From: an uncultured Armatimonadetes bacterium
GTDB lineage: Bacteria > Armatimonadota > Armatimonadia > Armatimonadales > Capsulimonadaceae
NCBI GenBank assembly: GCA_963795815.1
Contig: CAWCJD010000014.1
Coordinates: 118,122 to 182,121, forward strand
Length of the DNA stretch: 64,000 nucleotides
Direction of reading: 5' to 3'
Below, piece after piece: positions 1,934-64,000 of this stretch. The position numbers and the translations under genes were made by a program. Position 1 is the first letter of the stretch. Each line of letters starts with the position of its first letter. The notes beneath the pieces are model-generated. The model worked only from the letters and a program-made list of their open reading frames with translations, was not told where the DNA came from and searched no databases.

Positions 1934-4486
1934 TCAACGCCGCACGGCTGGCAGGGGGACGGAGGCGCCTTTGATACTGCGCCAAAGAAGAGTGTTGACG
2001 GCGGCATCGGGGGCGGCATCGGCATCCCGAAAGTCCAGGCGGCGGCTTTGCGCCGCCCCGTAGGACGCAGATGTGTTCCGCTGATCTAATAGCGTTTTGT
2101 CGGGAAGCAAAGCCGTAAAGGGCGTTAGGTCGGGGGTTGCCGTGAACGCGCGCAGGGGCGGGGCGACGGCATCGTAGCGGGTCATAGGCTGGAGATGCAG
2201 CAAAAGCTCTATCGTACGCAGCAGGCTATCCGTGTTGTAAAAGTGACGGTCTACCAAGCCCCTCTTAATATAAGGGGAAAGCACATAAGCCGTTGTCCGA
2301 TGGCAGTCCACATGGTCGGGCCCGTTCTGGGCATCGTCTTCAATCACAAAAACCGCTGTGCTGCCCCAAAAAGGCGAGTGGGAGATCGCCTGCACCAGTT
2401 CGCCCATAGCATAATCGTTGTCGGCAGCCATCGCCTGCGGCGTGTCCATGCCGGGCGTGGTCGCGGACGTGTGGTCGCGCGGCAGGCGTATTATTTCAAA
2501 AGCCGGCAGATTGTTGTTTTTCACATACCCGTCGAACTCGCGTTTCCAGGCCGTGTAACGGCTGGGCAGATGGCTTGGCCCATACAGATGTTCATCTTTG
2601 AGGGGCGGATCGCCGGGCTTCGGCAGCCCCTGCCCGGGCGGGCGGAGGCCAAGTGTAACCCAGGCATCGCTGTCTGCGTACTTCATATTAAAGGGGGCGA
2701 AGTCAGGCGAAGTCGCGCCGACCAGGGCGGGCTTGGTAGGATGGTCGCCCTGGAATGTCAGAAAGCAGCCGTAGTTTCGCAAAGGCAGTCCGGCATGGGC
2801 AACGGCATCCCAAATATAGCCGCCCGGCGACTCCGACACATCAATGCCCTGGTGGAGCGAGGGAGTGCTGCTTCGGTTCTCGCCTTCGTAGTCATAAGAG
2901 CGGACAGGGGGGCGTGGTGTTTGCTTGCGCTCGCTGTAGTTCTCGGGCACCGTCCGCTGGACATAGTCATTGGCGAAGCCGGATGTGCTCCAGTTCCAGC
3001 CATCCGGGCTGACTTCCGCGCAGGCATAACAATTGTCCAGCAGCACAAACTGCTCCGCCAGCGCGTGGAGGTTGGGCGTCACCGCACGCCCGAACAGCGT
3101 CAGCGACGGGTCGCCATTGCCAGTGTGGATATCGCCCAGAACCTGGTCATACGTGCGGTTCTCCTTGATAATATAAAGCACATGTTTGATCGGCAGACGG
3201 CCCAGGGCTCGCGCCGTTTGGAGCGCATCGGTGTCAAGGCTCTGCGTCACACTGTTGTCGGCGAGGACTTGCCGTGTCAGGATGCCCAGTTTCGCGGGAG
3301 TGGGGAGGCTGAGGCACTGTGCCGTGCCTGTCAGCAGGTTGTGGATATAACGTGTGCGTGTGCCCAGGCCCGTCGGACCGGACCCCTGCGGGTTAGCAAA
3401 ACGCCCCCGGGCCCCCTTGGCATTGATTATGCACATTGAACGGATACCGGGCACTGCGCAGACCGCAGACGGATACCAGCCGCACGGCAGCAGGCCACGC
3501 AGGCTGCCGTCATTGCGAGCCTTGTTCAGGCGCACAAGAGCGACAGCGTTCATATCAGCCAGAGTAACGCACACTGTCTGCTCGTCGGCAGTCAGGGCCA
3601 AACTCGTAGGAGTGGCACCCGGCAGGCCGCGCGCCGCAGCAGGACGCAGCAGCAGCGTGCGCAGCACCCGGTCGGTGCGCGTGTCGACAATGGAAATTGT
3701 ATCGCTGCCCGCATTGGCGACAAACAAGCGTTTGCCGTCGCGCGACAGGCACAGCGCATCGGGATGCGAGCCGGTTGCGATATCGCCTGTGTGGGACAGC
3801 GCGCGCGGGTTCACAACAGCCACCGTGCCGGACTGCTCGCAGGCGACATAGACTTTGGCGCTGTCCGGCAGGGCTGCCACCGCGAGCGGATAGCCGCCGA
3901 CAGGAACGCGCCCCAGCAAAGCATGCCGGGGAACATCGAAGACCGCAAGGCTGTCGGAGAGATTGTTGGCGGCATACAAGCGTGTCCCCGCACCGTTCAA
4001 GGCCACGCCGCAGGGGAAATTGCTCCTTTTGGGGTCGCCGGTCGGCTCTGCCAGCGCGCCGGTCTGTGTCAGCGCCCCAAGGGGGCTCAGACGAAAGATC
4101 CCGACCCTTTCCATGCTGCCCTGCGCCGCATAGACTGTCTGGCCCCGGGGCGAGACGGCCACGCCGTAAAAAGAGCTGCCGGTCGGTGAGTAGGAGATCG
4201 CGCCGTCGGCTTCTTTTTTCAATGTCTGGAAAGGCAAAAAAGAAAGCTGGCTCCGGGTCTGCATGTCTATGACGGATAAGCCCTGCAGGGCTCCGCTGCA
4301 GGACACGACCACGCGCGCTGTGCCCGGCACGCCTGCAGCGCCTAGGGGAAGTGTTCCTGACAAGGCGATCTGCCCGGCGACAGGCGATAAACGCTGCCCT
4401 GTCGGCAGCCGCTGCGCGGATGCCGGCAGGACGCACACTAGAGAAAACAACACAAATGACGCACGGCGCAGGAAATTGCCACCCAT
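1934..4486 (-). CDS. secreted YncE-like beta-propeller fused to a phosphoesterase (PLC/AcpA, PF04185-type) domain
   Basis: ORF 1934..4507; the ATG at 4484-4486 follows GAGG, and a signal peptide is present (FVLFSLVCVLPASAQ). The N-terminal half has repeated 'G..P..la.s.DG..lyVan' blades. The C-terminal half has IKHVLYIIKENRTYDQVLGD and VIEDDAQNGPDHVDCHR, typical of the phosphoesterase family. Confidence 0.8.
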   Translation of the reverse strand: MGGNFLRRASFVLFSLVCVLPASAQRLPTGQRLSPVAGQIALSGTLPLGAAGVPGTARVVVSCSGALQGLSVIDMQTRSQLSFLPFQTLKKEADGAISYSPTGSSFYGVAVSPRGQTVYAAQGSMERVGIFRLSPLGALTQTGALAEPTGDPKRSNFPCGVALNGAGTRLYAANNLSDSLAVFDVPRHALLGRVPVGGYPLAVAALPDSAKVYVACEQSGTVAVVNPRALSHTGDIATGSHPDALCLSRDGKRLFVANAGSDTISIVDTRTDRVLRTLLLRPAAARGLPGATPTSLALTADEQTVCVTLADMNAVALVRLNKARNDGSLRGLLPCGWYPSAVCAVPGIRSMCIINAKGARGRFANPQGSGPTGLGTRTRYIHNLLTGTAQCLSLPTPAKLGILTRQVLADNSVTQSLDTDALQTARALGRLPIKHVLYIIKENRTYDQVLGDIHTGNGDPSLTLFGRAVTPNLHALAEQFVLLDNCYACAEVSPDGWNWSTSGFANDYVQRTVPENYSERKQTPRPPVRSYDYEGENRSSTPSLHQGIDVSESPGGYIWDAVAHAGLPLRNYGCFLTFQGDHPTKPALVGATSPDFAPFNMKYADSDAWVTLGLRPPGQGLPKPGDPPLKDEHLYGPSHLPSRYTAWKREFDGYVKNNNLPAFEIIRLPRDHTSATTPGMDTPQAMAADNDYAMGELVQAISHSPFWGSTAVFVIEDDAQNGPDHVDCHRTTAYVLSPYIKRGLVDRHFYNTDSLLRTIELLLHLQPMTRYDAVAPPLRAFTATPDLTPFTALLPDKTLLDQRNTSASYGAAQSRRLDFRDADAAPDAAVNTLLWRSIKGASVPLPAVRR

Positions 4487-4603: not shown

Positions 4604-7158
4604 ATGGATTTTTGGAGACTTTACCGGCTTGTCATCGCGCGGCGGTGGCTGGTCCTTGGCCTGATGGCCGTCGCCCTGGTGTCTGTGCTGATCGCGAAAA
4701 AGGTCGCCGATGCACAGATACAATATGTCGCGACAGCCACCGTGCTGCCTTCGCCCCGCGCGATGAACCCCGGCGACATGACCAAAGGCGACGGTGCCGA
4801 CACAGCCGCCCCTGCCCCAGACCGCCTGTCCCGTATTTCTTTGTTCCGTACCAGCCTGGAAAACGAGCAGGATGAAGCCCTTAAAATCTCGGCGCTTTCT
4901 CCGCTGGAACAAAAGAAAGCCGTGCTGCGCGCCTTGAGCAACAGAATTCAGGGACCGGCGCGCAGGCTCTGGAGCAGCCCCACGGTCACGGAAGCCGAGA
5001 TCGACCCGTACCTGACCGCCTACCAGGTCCCAACCGATCCGCAGATCTGGTCGCCGCGCGTCGTCTCCCCTGCCCTCGCCCAGACCATTCGCAACGGCCT
5101 GGATGTTGCCCCGATCTACGATGAGAAAGTGACACAGTCAGGCGGTGGCGGCAACCCTGCCCCCACCATGACAGATTATATTTCCGTCAATGTCCATGCC
5201 CCGACCCCGCAGATGGCTCAGCAGCTCGCCACTCTCACCGCCGCCGCGTTCGTCAATGGCTACCAGGACTCGGGCATGCAGGAAAACCGGGCTTCTCTCA
5301 GCCAATACAAAGACAATCAGCGGCAGGCCCGCGATGAAGTCGTGCGCACACAAAACGCTTTGTACAATTTCAAGGAACGCACGGGCATAGTAGACCTTAA
5401 TATCCAGCAGTCAGCAGCGGTCAACGATCTCGGAACACCTCAAGCAGCAGCGGGAGCAGGCGCAGAGCCAGCTGGATTCGGCCCGCAGCGCTGCCGCCAC
5501 GGTGCAGGGCCAGCTCCAGCAAACCAACCCGCAGACAGTGACCAACCTTGACCCGCATTCGCGCCCCGAAGTCCTTGCACTGTCCACGAAGATCGAGCAG
5601 GATCAGGCTAATCTTCAGGTGCTTGCCACGCGGTTGACCCCCCAAAACCCCGATTACCAGCGGGCTGTGACATCACTCAGCGCCGAAAAGCGTCAATTGC
5701 AGCGTTTGTCGTCCCAGCCTTATGTCAGTGCGACAGTCAACCCGCAGTTTCAGGCCTTGCGCGCTCAGCGGGATGCCGAGCTGGCCGGGGCCGCCCGCGC
5801 TCAGGCCGCCGTGGCGCGCTACACCCAGCAGATCACGGCGTTGCAGGAGTCCAACAGCCGGACATTGCCCGAAGCGCAAAAAAAGCTGGCCGACCTGCAG
5901 ACCGCCTATGACCAGGCAGTTGGCAACAAACGTGCCGCGGATGCCGCCTATCACAACTTGCAGACCACCAACAAGCTTTTCAACAATGGCTTGATTACAC
6001 TCACCAGCGCCGCCGAATATGCCCTGCCGGATAAGACAGGGCCGGGCCTGATCACTTTGCTTGTCTACGCCGGGCTGCTTAGCTTGATTATCGGCATCGG
6101 CGTCGTGGTCGGGCTGGAACTCGCTGGACAACCGCATCCAGACCGTCGGGGATGCCGAACGACTGCTGGGGATGCCTGTTTCCGCTGTCATCCCCGAAAT
6201 GTCGGAAACAGACCCCCGTGTCCGCACACGCATGATTGTCAGCGACCCGCTGTCCCCGGTGGCCGAGTCTTATCGCCTGCTGCGCACCGACCTGCTGTTC
6301 TCGGCTGATGACAAGCCTTTTAAATCGATCATGGGGGCGACTTCCAAGCCCGGCCAGGGGGCAACCACCACGATCTGCAACCTCGCTGTCGCCCTCGCCC
6401 AGGTCGGCAAGCGCGTGATCTTGATTGATGCGGACCTGCGGCGGCCCAAGCTGCATGACTTCTTTGGGACGACCAATGAGACCGGCCTGACCAGCCTGCT
6501 GCGCGATGAGTGCAGCATGGAAGAAGCGCTCAAGATCACCGATATTGATAATCTCCTGCTGCTGCCGTCAGGCCCCCTGCCCCTGAACCCCTCCGAGCTG
6601 CTGGCTTCGCAGCGGATGCGCGTGCTGCACGAGCGGCTCAAGCCGCACACCGACTTTATTCTCGTAGACACGCCTTCGGCAATTGCCTTCAGCGACTCGG
6701 CGATCCTGGCCTCGTTTATGGATGCCGTGCTCTTGGTGATGCGAGCCCAGGAAGCGCCCCGCGGTGGCGAAAAGCAGGTCCGCGAGATGCTGACCAAGGC
6801 CCGCGCCAATGTCGTCGGCGTCGTGCTGAACGGTGTCAAGCCTCAGCTTGTCGACTCCTACCACTACCATGCGGCCTACTACCCGCAGATCGGCAAGTCA
6901 GTCGCCACGCATACTGCCCTGCCCGCCCCGGCTGCCGAGATTGACCTTCCCGCGACCCCTGCATTGCGCAGCGGCTACGAGCAGACCCTGATGGGGGTGA
7001 CTTTGGACCATCGCCACATGGCCGAAGACAAAAAAGCCGAGGCCGAGCCGGACAGCGTGGGCGAAGAAACCGCCTTTATGGATCAGGTGCCGGAAAGCCC
7101 GCAGGCCAAGTCCGGCTTTTCCCTGCGCTCGCTGTTCGGAACCGACCATGAGCACTAG
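4604..7158 (+). pseudogene. polysaccharide co-polymerase (Wzz/GumC-like) fused to a BY-kinase domain; frame broken twice as assembled
   Basis: ORFs 4604..5551, 5502..6308 and 6172..7158 lie in three frames and read through as one protein across shifts near 5428 (…AAVNDL/SEHLKQQREQAQ…) and near 6122 (…GLEL/LDNRIQTVGDAERLLGMPV…). Features are an N-terminal TM, a long coiled coil, a second TM, then a CapB/Wzc-type ATPase (ILIDADLRRP, FILVDTPS) and a C-terminal Tyr cluster YHYHAAYY. Confidence 0.8.
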
Positions 7159-59473: not shown

Positions 59474-60550
59474 ATGTTACAGCACGACCCCACCACTTCT
59501 CCCCCCACCCCTGATGCCGCGCACACGCGCGTCAAAGTCGATATCCTTGCCAAGGCCGTGGCCGCTATTGAAGCGCGTCGCCAGGAACAGGCACGACTGC
59601 TGGAAGGCACGGCGATGGTAGGTGATGTCGTCAAAGACTTGCAGCTTGATATCAGCCCCGAAGAACTGCTCGCGGAAGCCGAAGCGCAGCAGAAAGCCGC
59701 TCTCTCATTCCTGGAACAATCCCAGCACTGGAAGAGAGCTACGCACACTCGCAGTCACAAAGCCGCTCCGAGCGAGAGCGCAAAGCATTCTGGTCAATGG
59801 TCAGAATAAGCATGGCTGCGGTAGCTACTATTATCTTCGTCTTTTGGTGTCTTTCTTTTCGATCTACTTCTGCTCCCAATTTGTATCAGCCGACTTATAC
59901 GCCGAGTATGCCGTTTTACCGGCTCCTGTTCAATACATCGTCACCGCCGCCCCGATTCTCTTTTAACAATATGCCTTTAGGAATAATGCCTGCACGGATG
60001 GCGTTTGATCGGGGCGGCCCGGTTCATCCTCTTCTCGATATTGCCGATGGCCATCCCTTTGGGGCTTCTGTATACACGCTGCAAAGTTTACTGCGGCATG
60101 AGCCTCTCAGAGACGTCATGCTTTACGACGCCGAGCGCGATAAGACCGATGATCAAAGAAACCCGGATCAAGAAGTTGGCCAATTCCCACGTCAAATCAC
60201 CTCTGTGGGGACTTATGCACGTACTGATTGGACGCTTATCAAGTATGACGGCAAAGTTTACCTGCGCGGCTGGGTAGATGCGTCTGCTGCTAAACAAGCA
60301 GCGTCGATTGACATGATTTCGGTGTTCAACGTGCAGTCTGCTCTGCCGGATGGCACACGCCTTACCCCCATTACACTGCCGCTCGCTCCTGTCACGGGGA
60401 AGGGGTTTACTGGCGAAACAAGAAACACTGTCTTTAACGGCTCTCCTTCACGCGCTTCCGGCACCCGCCAAATCCCGCGGGACGTGCAGCAAGTTGCTTG
60501 TGCGAGGCCTGACGCTGGATGGTCATGCGTGGGAAAAGTGGATGCCATAA
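59474..60550 (+). pseudogene. paralog B of the same family, two compensating frameshifts as assembled
   Basis: N-terminal domain in the ORF 59378 frame (…LAKAVAAIEARR…LQLDISPEELLAEAEAQQK). The TM and WTLIKYDGKVYLRGW are in the ORF 59797 frame. The terminal …VRGLTLDGHAWEKWMP* is back in the first frame (ORF 60350). Shifts lie near 59803 and 60490. Confidence 0.6.
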
Positions 60551-60613
60551 CATATTTTCTTCTTTGTGACCTTGGCTTTCATGACCGTTATGCACACAGA
60601 ATAGCTGGACTTT

Positions 60614-61393
60614 ATGCTTAAATCTCACACACTCCCCAGTGCGCAAAACACGGTGGCAGACAGTTGCCCGCCCACGACGCAGGAGATTGCCCAGGCCATT
60701 GCGTCTTTGGAAGCCCGCAAAAACTCGTGCGACAGCAGCGCTGTGCAGGCCAGTACCGTCACCGAGATTATCGATAACCTTGGCCTAGATATGACAGCGG
60801 AAGATGTGTTGACCGAAGTGCGGGCACAGCGCACACGGCAGTCACCCTTGCGTTCGCTGCCGCCTGCGGCGCGCCAGCAACTAGCGGTCGTACTCGCTGT
60901 CGGAGCTATTGCCTTTTTCGGCATGGTCTGCATTAATGACAGGATGCTGCAGAATAATACTTCTACGTTGCCCAACGATCCGGCTTTGTCACCCAGCACG
61001 CTGGTGCAGGACACTGCCAACCACGCCGTCTTGATGAAGACGCTTGCCGAAATCCCCGACAATCACCCAGTACAATGTGGTATCACCGACAACGGAACCA
61101 CGACCCTGTCCGGTCCGCTGTGGACGCTCGTCAAGCATGGCGGCAAAGTTTACCTGCGCTGCTGGACGGTTCCGATGTCCGCGCGTGCCCTGAGTCAGGT
61201 CAGCCGGAACACGGGGCTGCTTTTGTTTCAAGGCCGCACAGGCAGGGATGGGAGCATCCGAGCGACCGCGCCACTCACTCTAGCTGCCGACAGCATCACC
61301 CTGCCGACAGGGAACACCCCTGATTCGGCTTCGTCCCTGGATGCTTTTGACGTGCGCCTGGACAGCCATGCCCATGAAACGTGGACACCATGA
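60614..61393 (+). CDS. paralog C of the same family
   Basis: 259 aa: …TTQEIAQAIASLEARK…LGLDMTAEDVLTEVRAQR…, a TM (LAVVLAVGAIAFFGMVCI), WTLVKHGGKVYLRCW, and a terminal …VRLDSHAHETWTP. Confidence 0.7.
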   Translation: MLKSHTLPSAQNTVADSCPPTTQEIAQAIASLEARKNSCDSSAVQASTVTEIIDNLGLDMTAEDVLTEVRAQRTRQSPLRSLPPAARQQLAVVLAVGAIAFFGMVCINDRMLQNNTSTLPNDPALSPSTLVQDTANHAVLMKTLAEIPDNHPVQCGITDNGTTTLSGPLWTLVKHGGKVYLRCWTVPMSARALSQVSRNTGLLLFQGRTGRDGSIRATAPLTLAADSITLPTGNTPDSASSLDAFDVRLDSHAHETWTP

Positions 61394-62625
61394 CCAAAGT
61401 CTTAGTGATCGGTGGCGGGGCGGCAGGCATGCTCGCCGCGCGGCGAGCGGCGGAGTGCGGCGCGCAGGTCACCCTGCTGGAGAAAAATGACCGCCTGGGC
61501 ATGAAAATCTTGATCTCCGGCGGCGGCAAATGCAACCTCACCCACGCGGGCACCATGGAAAGCATCCGTGCGCAGTTCCGTCCCCATGAAGGACGCTTCC
61601 TCAAGCCCGCTTTTTATCGCTTTACCAACAACGATTTCTTAAAAATCCTCCACGATCGAGGCATGCAGACTTATACGCGCCCCGACGGGCGCATCTTCCC
61701 CGTGGAACCCGCCAATGCCAAAGACGTGGTCGCCCTGCTCACGCAGCATGTCCTGGATGCGGGCGTCACCGTGCGTTACCAGGCCGCTGTCACCGGCCTG
61801 CACGTGCAAAACAACAGTCTGCGCGGTGTCCAAATAGGCGATGAATTCCTTGCCGCCGACCGCGTTGTTGTCTGCACCGGCGGGTCATCCTACCCCGCGA
61901 CGGGCACGACCGGCGATGGCTGGAAGTGGCTCCCCGAGGCCGGGCATTCCCTGATCCCACTCCGCGCCGCCCTCGCCCCTTTGTATCTGCACGAAGCACA
62001 AACCGAGTGGTCGGGTGTGGCCCTGCGCGGCGCGACCCTGCGGGCCCGGGCCGCACGCGAAGGCAAAGAATACGCCCGCTGGACCGGCGACCTGCTGTTC
62101 ACCCACAAAGGCGTGTCCGGCCCCACCGCGCTGGGCGTGTCCCGCGACATCGCCGAACGCGACCATGTGGGCGCAATCGAAGCCGACCTGGTCCCGGACA
62201 CGTCGTTTGAAGACCTGCGCGCCCGCCTGCAGGCCGAGACCCGCGCCCAGCCCCGCAAGACAGCCGCCGCACTGGTCGCGCCGTTCCTGCCCGCCCGCCT
62301 GGTGGAGCCCTTGCTTGCCGCCGCCAGTGTCGAGCCGTCAACACGCGGCGCTTACCTCCCTGCCAAAGCCATCAATAAGCTCGCCTCCACGCTCAAGGGC
62401 TGGCCACTCGGCGCGGTCCGCCATGTCCCCCTGGAGCGCGGCGAAGTGGTCGCAGGCGGTGTCCCCCTGTCCGAAGCAGACCCCCAGACCATGCAGTCCC
62501 TGGTGACACCGGGCCTCTACCTCTGCGGCGAGGTTCTGGACATTGCCGGCCCCGTAGGCGGCTACAACCTGCAGGCTGCCTGGAGCACCGGCTGGGTCGC
62601 CGGTGAATCCGCTGCCCGCCCCTGA
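61390..62625 (+). CDS. HI0933/BaiN-family NAD(P)/FAD-dependent oxidoreductase
   Basis: KVLVIGGGAAGMLAARRAAECG…EKN.RLG.KILISGGGKCNLTH. The ATG at 61390 overlaps the paralog C stop (ATGA); a GTG at 61381 is the alternative. Confidence 0.85.
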   Translation: MTKVLVIGGGAAGMLAARRAAECGAQVTLLEKNDRLGMKILISGGGKCNLTHAGTMESIRAQFRPHEGRFLKPAFYRFTNNDFLKILHDRGMQTYTRPDGRIFPVEPANAKDVVALLTQHVLDAGVTVRYQAAVTGLHVQNNSLRGVQIGDEFLAADRVVVCTGGSSYPATGTTGDGWKWLPEAGHSLIPLRAALAPLYLHEAQTEWSGVALRGATLRARAAREGKEYARWTGDLLFTHKGVSGPTALGVSRDIAERDHVGAIEADLVPDTSFEDLRARLQAETRAQPRKTAAALVAPFLPARLVEPLLAAASVEPSTRGAYLPAKAINKLASTLKGWPLGAVRHVPLERGEVVAGGVPLSEADPQTMQSLVTPGLYLCGEVLDIAGPVGGYNLQAAWSTGWVAGESAARP

Positions 62626-62685: not shown

Positions 62686-62728
62686 GGCATACCGACGACG
62701 GACCGATTTCGTCCGTCGTCGGTATGCC
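62686..62728. repeat. REP-like palindromic element, copy 5 of 5
   Basis: GGCATACCGACGACGGAC-cgattt-CGTCCGTCGTCGGTATGCC, 60 nt after the stop at 62623-62625. Confidence 0.8.
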
Positions 62729-62772: not shown

Positions 62773-62802
62773 TTGACAGCCAGCCCTGTTTGGGGCTACA
62801 AT
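62773..62802 (+). promoter_or_regulatory. sigma70-type promoter upstream of the riboswitch-like leader
   Basis: TTGACA (62773-62778), an 18-nt spacer, then TACAAT (62797-62802). Confidence 0.55.
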
Positions 62803-62828
62803 GGGTCCTCTAATCAATCTCGTGACTG

Positions 62829-62959
62829 CCATCGGTGCGACGCGATCAACGCGCGCATAATTGGGGAAGTCCGGTGCGTCTCTTTTTGGAGAGGCAATTC
62901 CGGCGCTGTGCCGCAACTGTGATGAGGCTTCGCCTCTCAGCCAGAATGCCACCCGATGG
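62829..62959 (+). promoter_or_regulatory. cobalamin riboswitch-like aptamer (short, class II / AdoCbl-variant-like)
   Basis: The closing helix pairs CCATCGGTG with CCACCCGATGG. Conserved cores appear in the expected order: AATTGGGGAAGTCCGGTG, AATTCCGGCGCTGTGCCGCAACTGTGA, a GAGGC-ttc-GCCTC hairpin, then the B12-box-like AGCCAGAATGCCACC. It lacks the GCCACTG/GGGAAGGC peripheral domain. Identified by eye against the remembered consensus, not by a covariance-model search. Confidence 0.6.
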
Positions 62960-63028
62960 TTCAGATAATGCCCTGGGCATTGTCTCTCTGACCGGCCTGC
63001 GCGCGACAGGCGGAAAGGAACCTTTGTT

Positions 63029-63835
63029 TTGCCCTGCTTGCTTTGGCATGCCCCACCCTCGGCGGTGCATCGCCGCCTTCCCCCTTCTGCCCGCGTGTGC
63101 GGGTGCCTTCGTCCTCGGTCCGGGTTTACCCTGATTGAGATGCTGGTCGTCATCGCGATTATTTCGCTGCTGGCGGCGATTTTGTTCCCTGTCTTTGCCC
63201 GGGCGCGTGAAAAGGGGCGTCAGACCGCCTGTGCGTCCAACCTCAAGCAATTGGGGCTGGCGTGGCTAATGTATGCCCAGGATTACGACGAGACCGCGTG
63301 CCCATCGTACTTCAATGGCGGCAATACAGCGTGGGATTTCCAACGTATCGGCGGGGTTTATCTGCCCGGTCTGCTGGGGGCATACACCCATGACGGGCGT
63401 GTTGCAGGCTGCCCGGACTGGGTCAATCGCTCCGCGACTGTGCGTCCTTACAACGGCTATGCGTACAATGCCACCTATCTGGGCGGCGACATGGGGACGC
63501 CACTGGGGTCTTTCCCGCCCGCTCCACTGGCACGGATATCAGCACCTGCCAATACTGCGGCCTTTGCCGATGGCGGCTATGCCAACCTCGCAACCGGCGC
63601 GGCCATGCCGGAAAACTTCCTGCGCGCGCCTTCCGACACTGTCTATTACGGGGCAGGCTTGATAGATTTTCGGCACACCAGCATGGCGGAAGTGGCTTAT
63701 GCCGACGGACATGTCCATGCTGTCCCGCAACGGTTTCCATTCCACCTGCAGTTCCCGCAGTTTGGGGGATTGTCTCAAGACGATTCGGCTTATGGGCCAG
63801 GCATGCAGCCCGCATCCGCTTATCCACAGCCGTGA
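63029..63835 (+). CDS. prepilin-type N-terminal cleavage/methylation domain protein with H-X9-DG (DUF1559) domain
   Basis: [48 protein letters not shown] is the classic type IV pilin-like N-terminus. The H-X9-DG motif is [14 protein letters not shown]. The TTG at 63029 lies 8 nt after GGAAAGGAA; the GTG at 63095 is an alternative start giving a shorter leader. Confidence 0.85.
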
Positions 63836-63859
63836 AACACACAGAAAGAAAATAAATCT

Positions 63860-64000
63860 ATGATACGCAACAAAGGCTTGACCGTTTCACTGCTTACGCT
63901 TCTTGCTCTGCCCTTGTCGGCACAGGCGCAGAACTTTGCTTCCTCAGTCACAACTTATTCGGCACCGGGCGCAAGCGCGCCGTTTAACAGCCCGCAGGCT
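63860..64000 (+). CDS. secreted hypothetical protein, N-terminal 47 codons only (runs off the right edge)
   Basis: ATG at 63860 with a signal peptide (MIRNKGLTVSLLTLLALPLSAQA|Q). It begins 24 nt after the DUF1559 gene and is probably co-transcribed. Confidence 0.5.
   Translation, partial: MIRNKGLTVSLLTLLALPLSAQAQNFASSVTTYSAPGASAPFNSPQA

Follow-up and report, generated by a model that had tools for sequence, protein, structure and literature searches.

Cobalamin riboswitches usually mark genes that make, import or bypass vitamin B12, and the scavenging of B12 shapes microbial communities. Among the closest described systems to the one considered here are the Bacteroides binders BtuG, BtuH and BtuJ (DUF4465), non-enzymatic proteins, secreted or tethered to the cell surface, whose genes directly follow a cobalamin riboswitch (PMC8941943, PMC10404256, PMC13398666). 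Here, we analyze a 64,000-nucleotide (nt) stretch of the genome of an uncultured Armatimonadetes bacterium (contig CAWCJD010000014.1; the window), which ends in a short cobalamin riboswitch followed on the same strand by two genes, one for a type IV pilin-like protein of the DUF1559 family (gene 1) and one for a secreted protein (gene 2). An earlier reading of the letters alone (the sequence-only reading) had suggested that these genes might form a B12-linked module for corrinoid capture or uptake that involves a DUF1559 pseudopilin. The suggestion appears supported by the recurrence of the trio of riboswitch, pilin and partner across phyla, by fusions to B12-binding domains and by a weak BtuH-like fold prediction, and we consider it probable that the whole is a B12-repressed scavenging module that captures and takes up corrinoids. 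The RNA belongs to a known class, of which it shows a variant architecture; as we read it, the protein pair works like the Bacteroides binders without belonging to those families at the sequence level.

DUF1559 is one of the protein families that have expanded most in Planctomycetes and their relatives, and in the literature searched no function, ligand or regulator is assigned to the family. The only functional context that we found for it is a proteomic note on Tuwongella immobilis, in which genes with N_methyl and SBP_bac_10 domains occur in large numbers and often have signal-peptide genes beside them (PMC8567305); the pair in the window, where gene 1 likewise adjoins a signal-peptide gene, fits that pattern. 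A search of 7.7 million PMC papers and 0.34 million bioRxiv preprints gave no link of DUF1559, H-X9-DG, SBP_bac_10, pseudopilins or PEP-CTERM to cobalamin. The linkage described here connects one clearly delimited DUF1559 subfamily with a particular small molecule and a particular regulator, which makes its function directly testable and gives a first functional handle on this very large family. Among environmental B12 binders outside Bacteroidetes, the gene 2 family is a strong candidate for a new class.

When Rfam cmscan was run on both strands of the whole window, a single match exceeded its gathering score. This was RF00174 (Cobalamin) at 62816-62971 (+), with 36.9 bits against a gathering score of 31.5, an E value of 9.7e-06 and the full model covered (1-189), so that the aptamer proposed in the sequence-only reading passed the covariance-model check named there. 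The ordered hallmarks that it had described within 62829-62959 are all in place on the + strand: the core consists of GGGAAG-TCC-GGTG (62864-62876), AATTCCGG (62896-62903), GCCGCAACTGTGA (62910-62922) and the B12 box AGCCAGAATGCC (62939-62950), and P1 is formed by CCATCGG (62829-62835) with CCGATGG (62953-62959). The remaining helices are P2 (62837-62856), P3 (62862-62865/62949-62951), P4 (62869-62874/62900-62904), P5 (62907-62915) and a short P6 (62924-62936). With RF00174 (clan CL00101) the element shares the conserved core, that is, the GGGAA/GGUG junction, the AAUUCCGG strand of P4, the L5 GCCGCAACUG and the B12 box AGCCAGAAUGCC; as in that class, P1-P6 form with covariation and the 5' leader precedes envelope genes.

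The differences from the Rfam class lie at the periphery. In the RF00174 alignment, 7 nt stand for the 62 model positions of the P6 extension, in whose place there is a 5-bp hairpin, and the large peripheral domain is absent just as had been noted by eye. Relative to the model, 18 nt are inserted in L4, where the window carries the hairpin GCGUCUC-UUUUUG-GAGAGGC (62876-62895, +); its TCTC and GAGA arms (62879-62892) are the extra small hairpin TCTC-tttttg-GAGA that had been reported after GGTG, and it covaries among relatives at a place where Rfam has no consensus columns. The four outermost model P1 pairs are unformed in the window, and the inner P1, P2-P5, the short P6 and the B12 box are intact. 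The lack of the P6 extension, together with the insertion in L4, accounts for the modest score. The window aptamer is a short structural variant, in which the P6 extension has been lost and an L4 hairpin gained; its architecture is closest to the short class-II type without a P6 extension, and the loss of that extension does not exclude membership of the cobalamin clan.

A score only 5.4 bits over the cutoff, together with the unformed outer P1 pairs, might suggest that the match is decayed or due to chance and plays no part in regulation, the genes behind it being expressed independently of B12. This explanation is barely credible, given that the match is the only one in 64 kb, that its low score has the structural cause just described and that 19 relatives retain the element with compensatory changes. 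When canonical and short riboswitches were aligned together with MAFFT (A2), the consensus structure had only 7 pairs and could not be used, and therefore a clade-restricted alignment of 19 Armatimonadota leaders (A4) was used, to which the window helices were mapped by hand. In this alignment, 87.7% of the cells are paired and 14 of the 29 pairs have changed on both sides; none of 500 shuffles matched the observed value on any of five measures, and sliding the 3' partners as a control brought pairing down to 33-50% of cells. The aptamer core motifs are invariant in the 19 sequences. Because MAFFT cannot align two length-variable hairpins, P6 and the L4 insert were folded sequence by sequence: a P6 hairpin of varying sequence is present in 17 of the 19 relatives, and an L4 hairpin that varies in sequence and length (20-43 nt) is also present in 17, the remaining two having a plain GCAA/UAAA loop.

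Wherever the sequence of a relative reaches far enough upstream, the orthologous DUF1559 gene is preceded by the same leader. On three long contigs RF00174 lies directly upstream of the orthologue (50.4, 46.9 and 35.9 bits) and the order is the same, riboswitch, pilin and a protein of ~300 aa; in one of them (L003) synteny with the window also extends to both flanks. The sequence-only reading had asked whether relatives keep the leader and show compensatory changes, and they do, with changes in P1, P2, P6 and the inserted hairpin. Judged from these comparisons the riboswitch is real and under selection, and we are highly confident that it is functional and controls this operon. Some database open reading frame (ORF) calls (P0036 and P0040) run into the riboswitch and translate it.

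The association is not restricted to Armatimonadota. The alignment of the gene 2 family (A1) was scanned against one genome per species, giving 369 relatives, and 79 distinct loci were fetched. These belong to Armatimonadota (Capsulimonadaceae, Chthonomonadaceae and Fimbriimonadaceae), Verrucomicrobiota, Kiritimatiellia, Lentisphaerae, Planctomycetota (Phycisphaerae, Pirellulales and Tepidisphaerales), Desulfobacterota and a few others. A cobalamin-class riboswitch, called by the Rfam gathering score or by a clade model (R1), lies upstream of gene 2 on the same strand in 69 of the 79 loci, and of the ten riboswitch-negative loci four lie on contigs that end shortly upstream. Of the 65 matches in the R1 search, 64 were on the strand of gene 2. 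Many canonical riboswitches were overlooked by the clade model (such as that of L052) or received too low a score from it (~13 bits for L055 and L074), and these loci were rescanned with Rfam; a crude regular-expression scan, which gave false negatives and one false positive, was excluded from the counts. Among the linked riboswitches are many canonical ones with high scores (60-122 bits) and some tandem ones. Their presence at the same position in other phyla is a further argument against a chance match in the window.

A DUF1559-type pilin, matched over nearly the whole subfamily hidden Markov model (HMM) in local searches, is adjacent to gene 2 on the same strand in 62 of the 79 loci, or 62 of 67 when one counts the Planctomycetes-Verrucomicrobia-Chlamydiae (PVC) phyla, Armatimonadota and unclassified or evidently mis-binned metagenome-assembled genomes (MAGs). 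The pilin precedes gene 2 in Armatimonadota and follows it in Verrucomicrobiota, Kiritimatiellia and Planctomycetota, and Pfam confirms N_methyl and DUF1559 in the PVC examples. Since cobalamin riboswitches usually have the role given above, and since the linkage holds in 69 of 79 loci across phyla, it is very likely that the gene 2 family is part of corrinoid handling.

The loci vary in their riboswitches. In the Chthonomonas/Uphvl-Ar2 group the best model for the leader is the short AdoCbl-II (RF01689) rather than RF00174 (L045 5033-5108, 39.4 against 36.5 bits; also L038, L044 and L047), and therefore different subclasses of cobalamin aptamer front the same gene pair. Several loci have more than one cobalamin riboswitch on the same strand: L081 (Kiritimatiellia; closely spaced tandem aptamers at 3839-4035 and 4174-4341), L028 (492-621 and 792-982), L059 (995-1184, 2156-2351 and 2710-2851), L073 (1331-1518 and 2926-3177) and L053 (4483-4703 and 7054-7279). 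Loci of Desulfobacterota carry c-di-GMP-I or c-di-GMP-I-GGC riboswitches near the gene 2 homologues, mostly (not in L065) beside cobalamin riboswitches; they lie at 4902-4986 and 7782-7858 in L029, 160-237(-) and 4949-5071 in L031, 2177-2269 in L058, 2975-3110 in L059, 1-59 in L065 and 2774-2864 in L073. This proximity suggests combined control by c-di-GMP and B12 of the tandem PEP-CTERM genes in these loci. One locus (L008, JBPBQB010000290.1) is labelled as a Janthinobacterium lividum MAG, yet it has a riboswitch, pilin and gene 2 of the Armatimonadales type with high similarity, and the public record probably contains a binning or labelling error.

Gene 2 itself is cut by the window edge, and only its 5' end is present (63860-64000, +). 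This second ORF encodes a signal-peptide-like N-terminus, in agreement with the earlier remark that a signal-peptide protein follows the DUF1559 gene. Exact-sequence look-ups of the window's DUF1559 protein (two starts) and of the HI0933-like protein encoded upstream returned no record; therefore the context was taken from homologues and from a short Logan contig (L083; 1,500 nt), which is identical to the window over 62894-64000 and extends the gene 2 ORF to 178 aa. These 178 aa match the HMM of the riboswitch-associated, beta-rich family with an E value of 3.4e-52. The full-length orthologues have 298-314 aa, a signal peptide, a PEP-CTERM-type tail and no Pfam family. The tail is a feature of the orthologues, the C-terminus of the window protein lying beyond both position 64000 and L083; in P0121 TIGR02595 scores 17.7 bits against a cutoff of 16, and P0190 and P0167 pass PF07589. 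Nine family members showed no match to the B12-binding jellyroll DUF4465 (PF14717) or to any other Pfam domain at E<=10, and the weak NCBIfam matches of the family (LIC_13355 lipoprotein and NF038129 PEP-CTERM, E ~1e-3) are far under cutoff. What gene 2 encodes is an unnamed beta-rich domain of ~260 residues for which Pfam has no model.

A profile search of 1.84 billion representative proteins found this domain in 1,388 clusters (50% identity), many of whose members are multidomain. Ten multidomain members were inspected: one carries DUF4465 (P0269, E 1e-54), which occurs in the gene 2 family only as this separate fused domain, two carry DUF4430 and also have beta-propeller matches, and one has DUF1559 in the same ORF (P0230). 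DUF4465 proteins from eight lineages bind B12 by experiment (PMC13398666), and in transcobalamin-type binders the C-terminal domain is a DUF4430 (PMC4350170). The AlphaFold2 (AF2) model of the orthologue P0121 has a mean confidence score (pLDDT) of 92. Among 350,542 chains of the PDB, its best Foldseek match is BtuG1 (8blw_B, E 3.4e-4, probability 1.0) and its fourth is BtuH2 (7biz_B, "a B12 binding lipoprotein", E 2e-2). Both chains contain the BtuH B12-binding domain (PMC8941943), because BtuG1 carries a fused BtuH domain (PMC10404256). The predicted BtuH-like fold is a lead that agrees with the domain fusions, not proof of homology.

Set beside the Bacteroides proteins, then, gene 2 resembles them in encoding a secreted, non-enzymatic protein behind a cobalamin riboswitch, in its best (though weak) structural matches, which are BtuH-domain proteins, and in being fused to DUF4465 and to beta-propellers. 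It differs in having no detectable sequence homology with them and in its anchoring, the Bacteroides binders being lipid-anchored whereas the relatives of gene 2 are PEP-CTERM-tethered. The Bacteroides btu systems have no pilin, whereas the constant partner of gene 2 is a type IV pilin-like protein, and the TonB-dependent transporter BtuB of the btu loci was not found among the gene 2 operon genes scanned.

PEP-CTERM proteins are generally tied to exopolysaccharide and biofilm contexts, and one might picture the pair as an apparatus for adhesion or contact, induced by B12 starvation, in which a pilus subunit and a PEP-CTERM protein attach the cell to B12 producers or to particles. Such a function would account for two products that belong to the envelope or surface and lack enzymatic and transporter domains, for the pilin fold of gene 1, which is that of filament subunits, and for operons among whose scanned genes no transporter was found. 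It would leave aside the fusion of the gene 2 domain to two different dedicated B12-binding domains, its nearest fold, which is again a B12-binding domain, and a riboswitch linkage across phyla (69/79) of the kind seen for dedicated corrinoid-handling genes. We consider adhesion quite improbable, and favor corrinoid capture as the role of gene 2.

Gene 1 (63029-63835, +) begins with TTG and encodes 268 aa. Its prepilin leader comprises residues 1-32 and its G|FTLIE cleavage motif lies at ~63122-63139 (+). The sequence-only reading had called the first downstream gene a prepilin-type H-X9-DG/DUF1559 protein, and for the prepilin and DUF1559 domains this identification holds. N_methyl (PF07963) scores 36 bits against a cutoff of 21.2, DUF1559/SBP_bac_10 (PF07596) 36.6 bits against 23.3 and the prepilin domain TIGR02532 33.4 bits against 16.3, and homologues of gene 1 carry precomputed PF07596 matches. 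The H-X9-DG motif (63674-63709, +; H216-X9-D226-G227) was recognized by inspection; the subfamily conserves its H, D and G, and the NCBIfam scan listed no TIGR04294 match at E<=0.01. More than 100 proteins are 50-68% identical to the window pilin. In the 19 related leaders, a Shine-Dalgarno (SD) sequence (GGAAGGA or GAAAGGA) is followed after 8-10 nt by ATG, TTG or GTG at the same position, and therefore the start of gene 1 was placed at TTG 63029, which gives an unusually long leader of 32 residues.

With the DUF1559 family at large gene 1 shares the N-terminal methylation motif G|FTLIE, the C-terminal H-X9-DG and, behind the helix, a conserved segment (..YAxDYD). It belongs to a distinct subfamily, consistently riboswitch-linked, of ~250-270 aa with a long Pro/Arg-rich leader and head motifs of its own: the linked pilins share AWD, PxxGYxYN, N[FK][LM]RAP and G.LS.D[DN]S.Y, whereas a neighboring paralogue that is not linked lacks them. 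The AF2 model (pLDDT 92) shows a 50-residue alpha1 helix (13-63 of the 246-aa form) and a beta-rich head, and its PDB neighbors are type IV pilins only, with weak scores (FimA at E 0.036, then Myxococcus xanthus PilA and PAK pilin). The predicted long hydrophobic alpha1 helix and beta head are similar to those of pseudopilins of the type II secretion system (T2SS) and of competence (Com), and the models for GspG, ComGC and PilA give weak scores for the class III signal peptide. On the side of the differences, the equivalog scores (GspG, PilA and ComG) are all far under cutoff (for example, GspG 35.6 against 88.85), the head is ~2 times the size of that of classical pilins, and genes for the assembly ATPase, platform and secretin are not in the operon.

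How specific the pilin is to the ligand can be weighed on this evidence. It could be that gene 2 alone is B12-related and that the DUF1559 pilin is a generic helper that exports or anchors the PEP-CTERM protein. Gene 2 homologues are riboswitch-linked without a pilin in Desulfobacterota, Dehalococcoidia, Thermacetogenium and WOR-3 (adjacent in 0 of 12), the N_methyl plus SBP_bac_10 genes of T. immobilis are commonly flanked by signal-peptide genes (PMC8567305), and the head of the pilin is like no known binder. However, a generic helper would not be expected to form its own conserved subfamily in at least three phyla, with head motifs that the neighboring paralogue lacks; the pair also persists although the gene order flips between phyla, and P0230 has both domains in one ORF. 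We regard the helper role as unlikely, and prefer to see the pilin as a dedicated partner.

Upstream of the aptamer, a consensus scan located the sigma-70-type promoter TTGACA-18-TACAAT at 62773-62802 (+), just where it had been claimed, with 11 of 12 matches; when the region is shuffled, 0.5 such sites occur on average. In 18 of 20 relatives TTGAC[AT]-17/18-TA(T/C)A(C/A)T (>=10/12 matches) lies 13-41 nt 5' of the aptamer, and the position of the promoter is conserved. The leader, earlier put at ~230 nt, measures ~220 nt from about 62809 to TTG 63029. Its expression platform contains a first hairpin at 62963-62985 (+), an inverted repeat of 11 nt with 91% complementarity, and a hairpin of different sequence occupies the same place after P1 in relatives and covaries. 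The second hairpin, GCCUG-CGCGCGA-CAGGC (62995-63011, +), is almost invariant in the 19 relatives and is abutted by the SD sequence GGAAAGGA (63012-63019, +). In the predicted ensembles of many relatives the SD is mostly paired with a pyrimidine run 5' of the second hairpin; its unpaired probability is 0.05-0.67 in the relatives (0.05-0.14 in eight of them), and for the window the value is 0.31. Between the aptamer and the start codon of the window there is no stem with a U tract behind it, as expected of a terminator. The L5-L13 kissing-loop complementarity was sought in the platform and none was conserved or convincing; we therefore leave the platform as one of probable SD sequestration, by which translation would be switched off.

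Taken together, the locus may work as follows. A single transcription unit runs from the sigma-70 promoter through the ~220-nt leader and its functional riboswitch. When corrinoid is bound, the SD would most likely be kept sequestered beside the conserved hairpin, shutting off translation of the two-gene operon without a terminator. When B12 is scarce, the cell would display the gene 2 protein as a corrinoid binder at its surface, functionally like BtuH, BtuJ and BtuG, with the pilin as its dedicated envelope partner. The pilin might be presented or retracted by the type II secretion or type IV pilus (T4P) machinery, or it might be a periplasmic receptor anchored in the inner membrane that passes the captured corrinoid inward. 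On this view, the pair would be a scavenging module induced by B12 starvation in Armatimonadota and the PVC phyla. Of this picture, the analysis establishes the riboswitch, the structure of the operon, its linkage across phyla and the domain fusions; that either protein binds corrinoid, that regulation has the stated direction and acts on translation, and that a pseudopilus takes part is inferred.

Competence pseudopili mediate DNA import, and this provides a working analogy for uptake. A bolder proposal is that corrinoid import in PVC bacteria and Armatimonadota is pilin-based: a B12-specific DUF1559 pseudopilin, worked by the T2SS/T4P machinery, would take cobalamin from the PEP-CTERM binder through the envelope and replace the TonB-dependent BtuB step, and the principle would extend to DUF1559 paralogues generally. 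We hold this to be rather doubtful. Were it true, each of the hundreds of DUF1559 paralogues in a genome would be an uptake pseudopilin specific to one substrate and paired with a secreted binder of its own.

Several observations weigh against the scavenging reading and should be set out together. On the RNA side, the search for an L5-L13 kissing loop that might couple the aptamer to the SD hairpin gave none that was convincing. As for the pilin, its absence from all 12 loci of the four groups named above means that it is not universally required, its PF07596 alignment covers only profile positions 2-47 of 268, and the search with its model gave no solute- or B12-binding fold, so that the head is without an analogue among known B12 binders. 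For gene 2, the superpositions on BtuG1 and BtuH2 are poor (TM score 0.20-0.27, root-mean-square deviation 17-21 Å), and the family has no sequence-level match to any PDB chain, profile searches included. The sequence-only reading had proposed to look for TonB-dependent receptors among the genes beyond position 64000; a scan of downstream genes in four relatives turned up no gene for BtuB, BtuFCD or TonB, nor did three annotated Armatimonadota contexts, so that the genes scanned offer corrinoid no route to the cytoplasm.

Some loci of the Capsulimonadaceae type do have a third gene on the same strand after the pair (L001 12154-13458, 434 aa; L002 11835-12983, 382 aa), which has no NCBIfam match and, in L002, a weak FG-GAP match. 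It is absent from L003, the closest relative of the window, where a tRNA gene stands in its place. In a Chthonomonadaceae contig (L018), a group I intron (RF00028, 61 bits against 50) lies at 832-1059, ~4 kb upstream of the riboswitch.

Upstream of the riboswitch unit in the window is the gene for the HI0933-like flavoprotein (61381-62625), preceded by two adjacent ORFs at 59797-60621 (274 aa) and 60614-61393 (259 aa). Neither has a Pfam match, and they have a common motif (WTLIKYDGKVYLRGW and WTLVKHGGKVYLRCW); they look like tandem paralogues, to which we assign no function. In L001 and L003 the corresponding position, between the genes for CNNM and the HI0933-like protein, is likewise taken by genes without Pfam matches. 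Between the stop codon of the HI0933-like gene and the riboswitch promoter lies a perfect 18-bp inverted repeat with a 7-nt loop (62686-62728; GGCATACCGACGACGGAC and GTCCGTCGTCGGTATGCC), a hairpin that is terminator-like but has no U tract and that divides the riboswitch unit from the HI0933-like gene.

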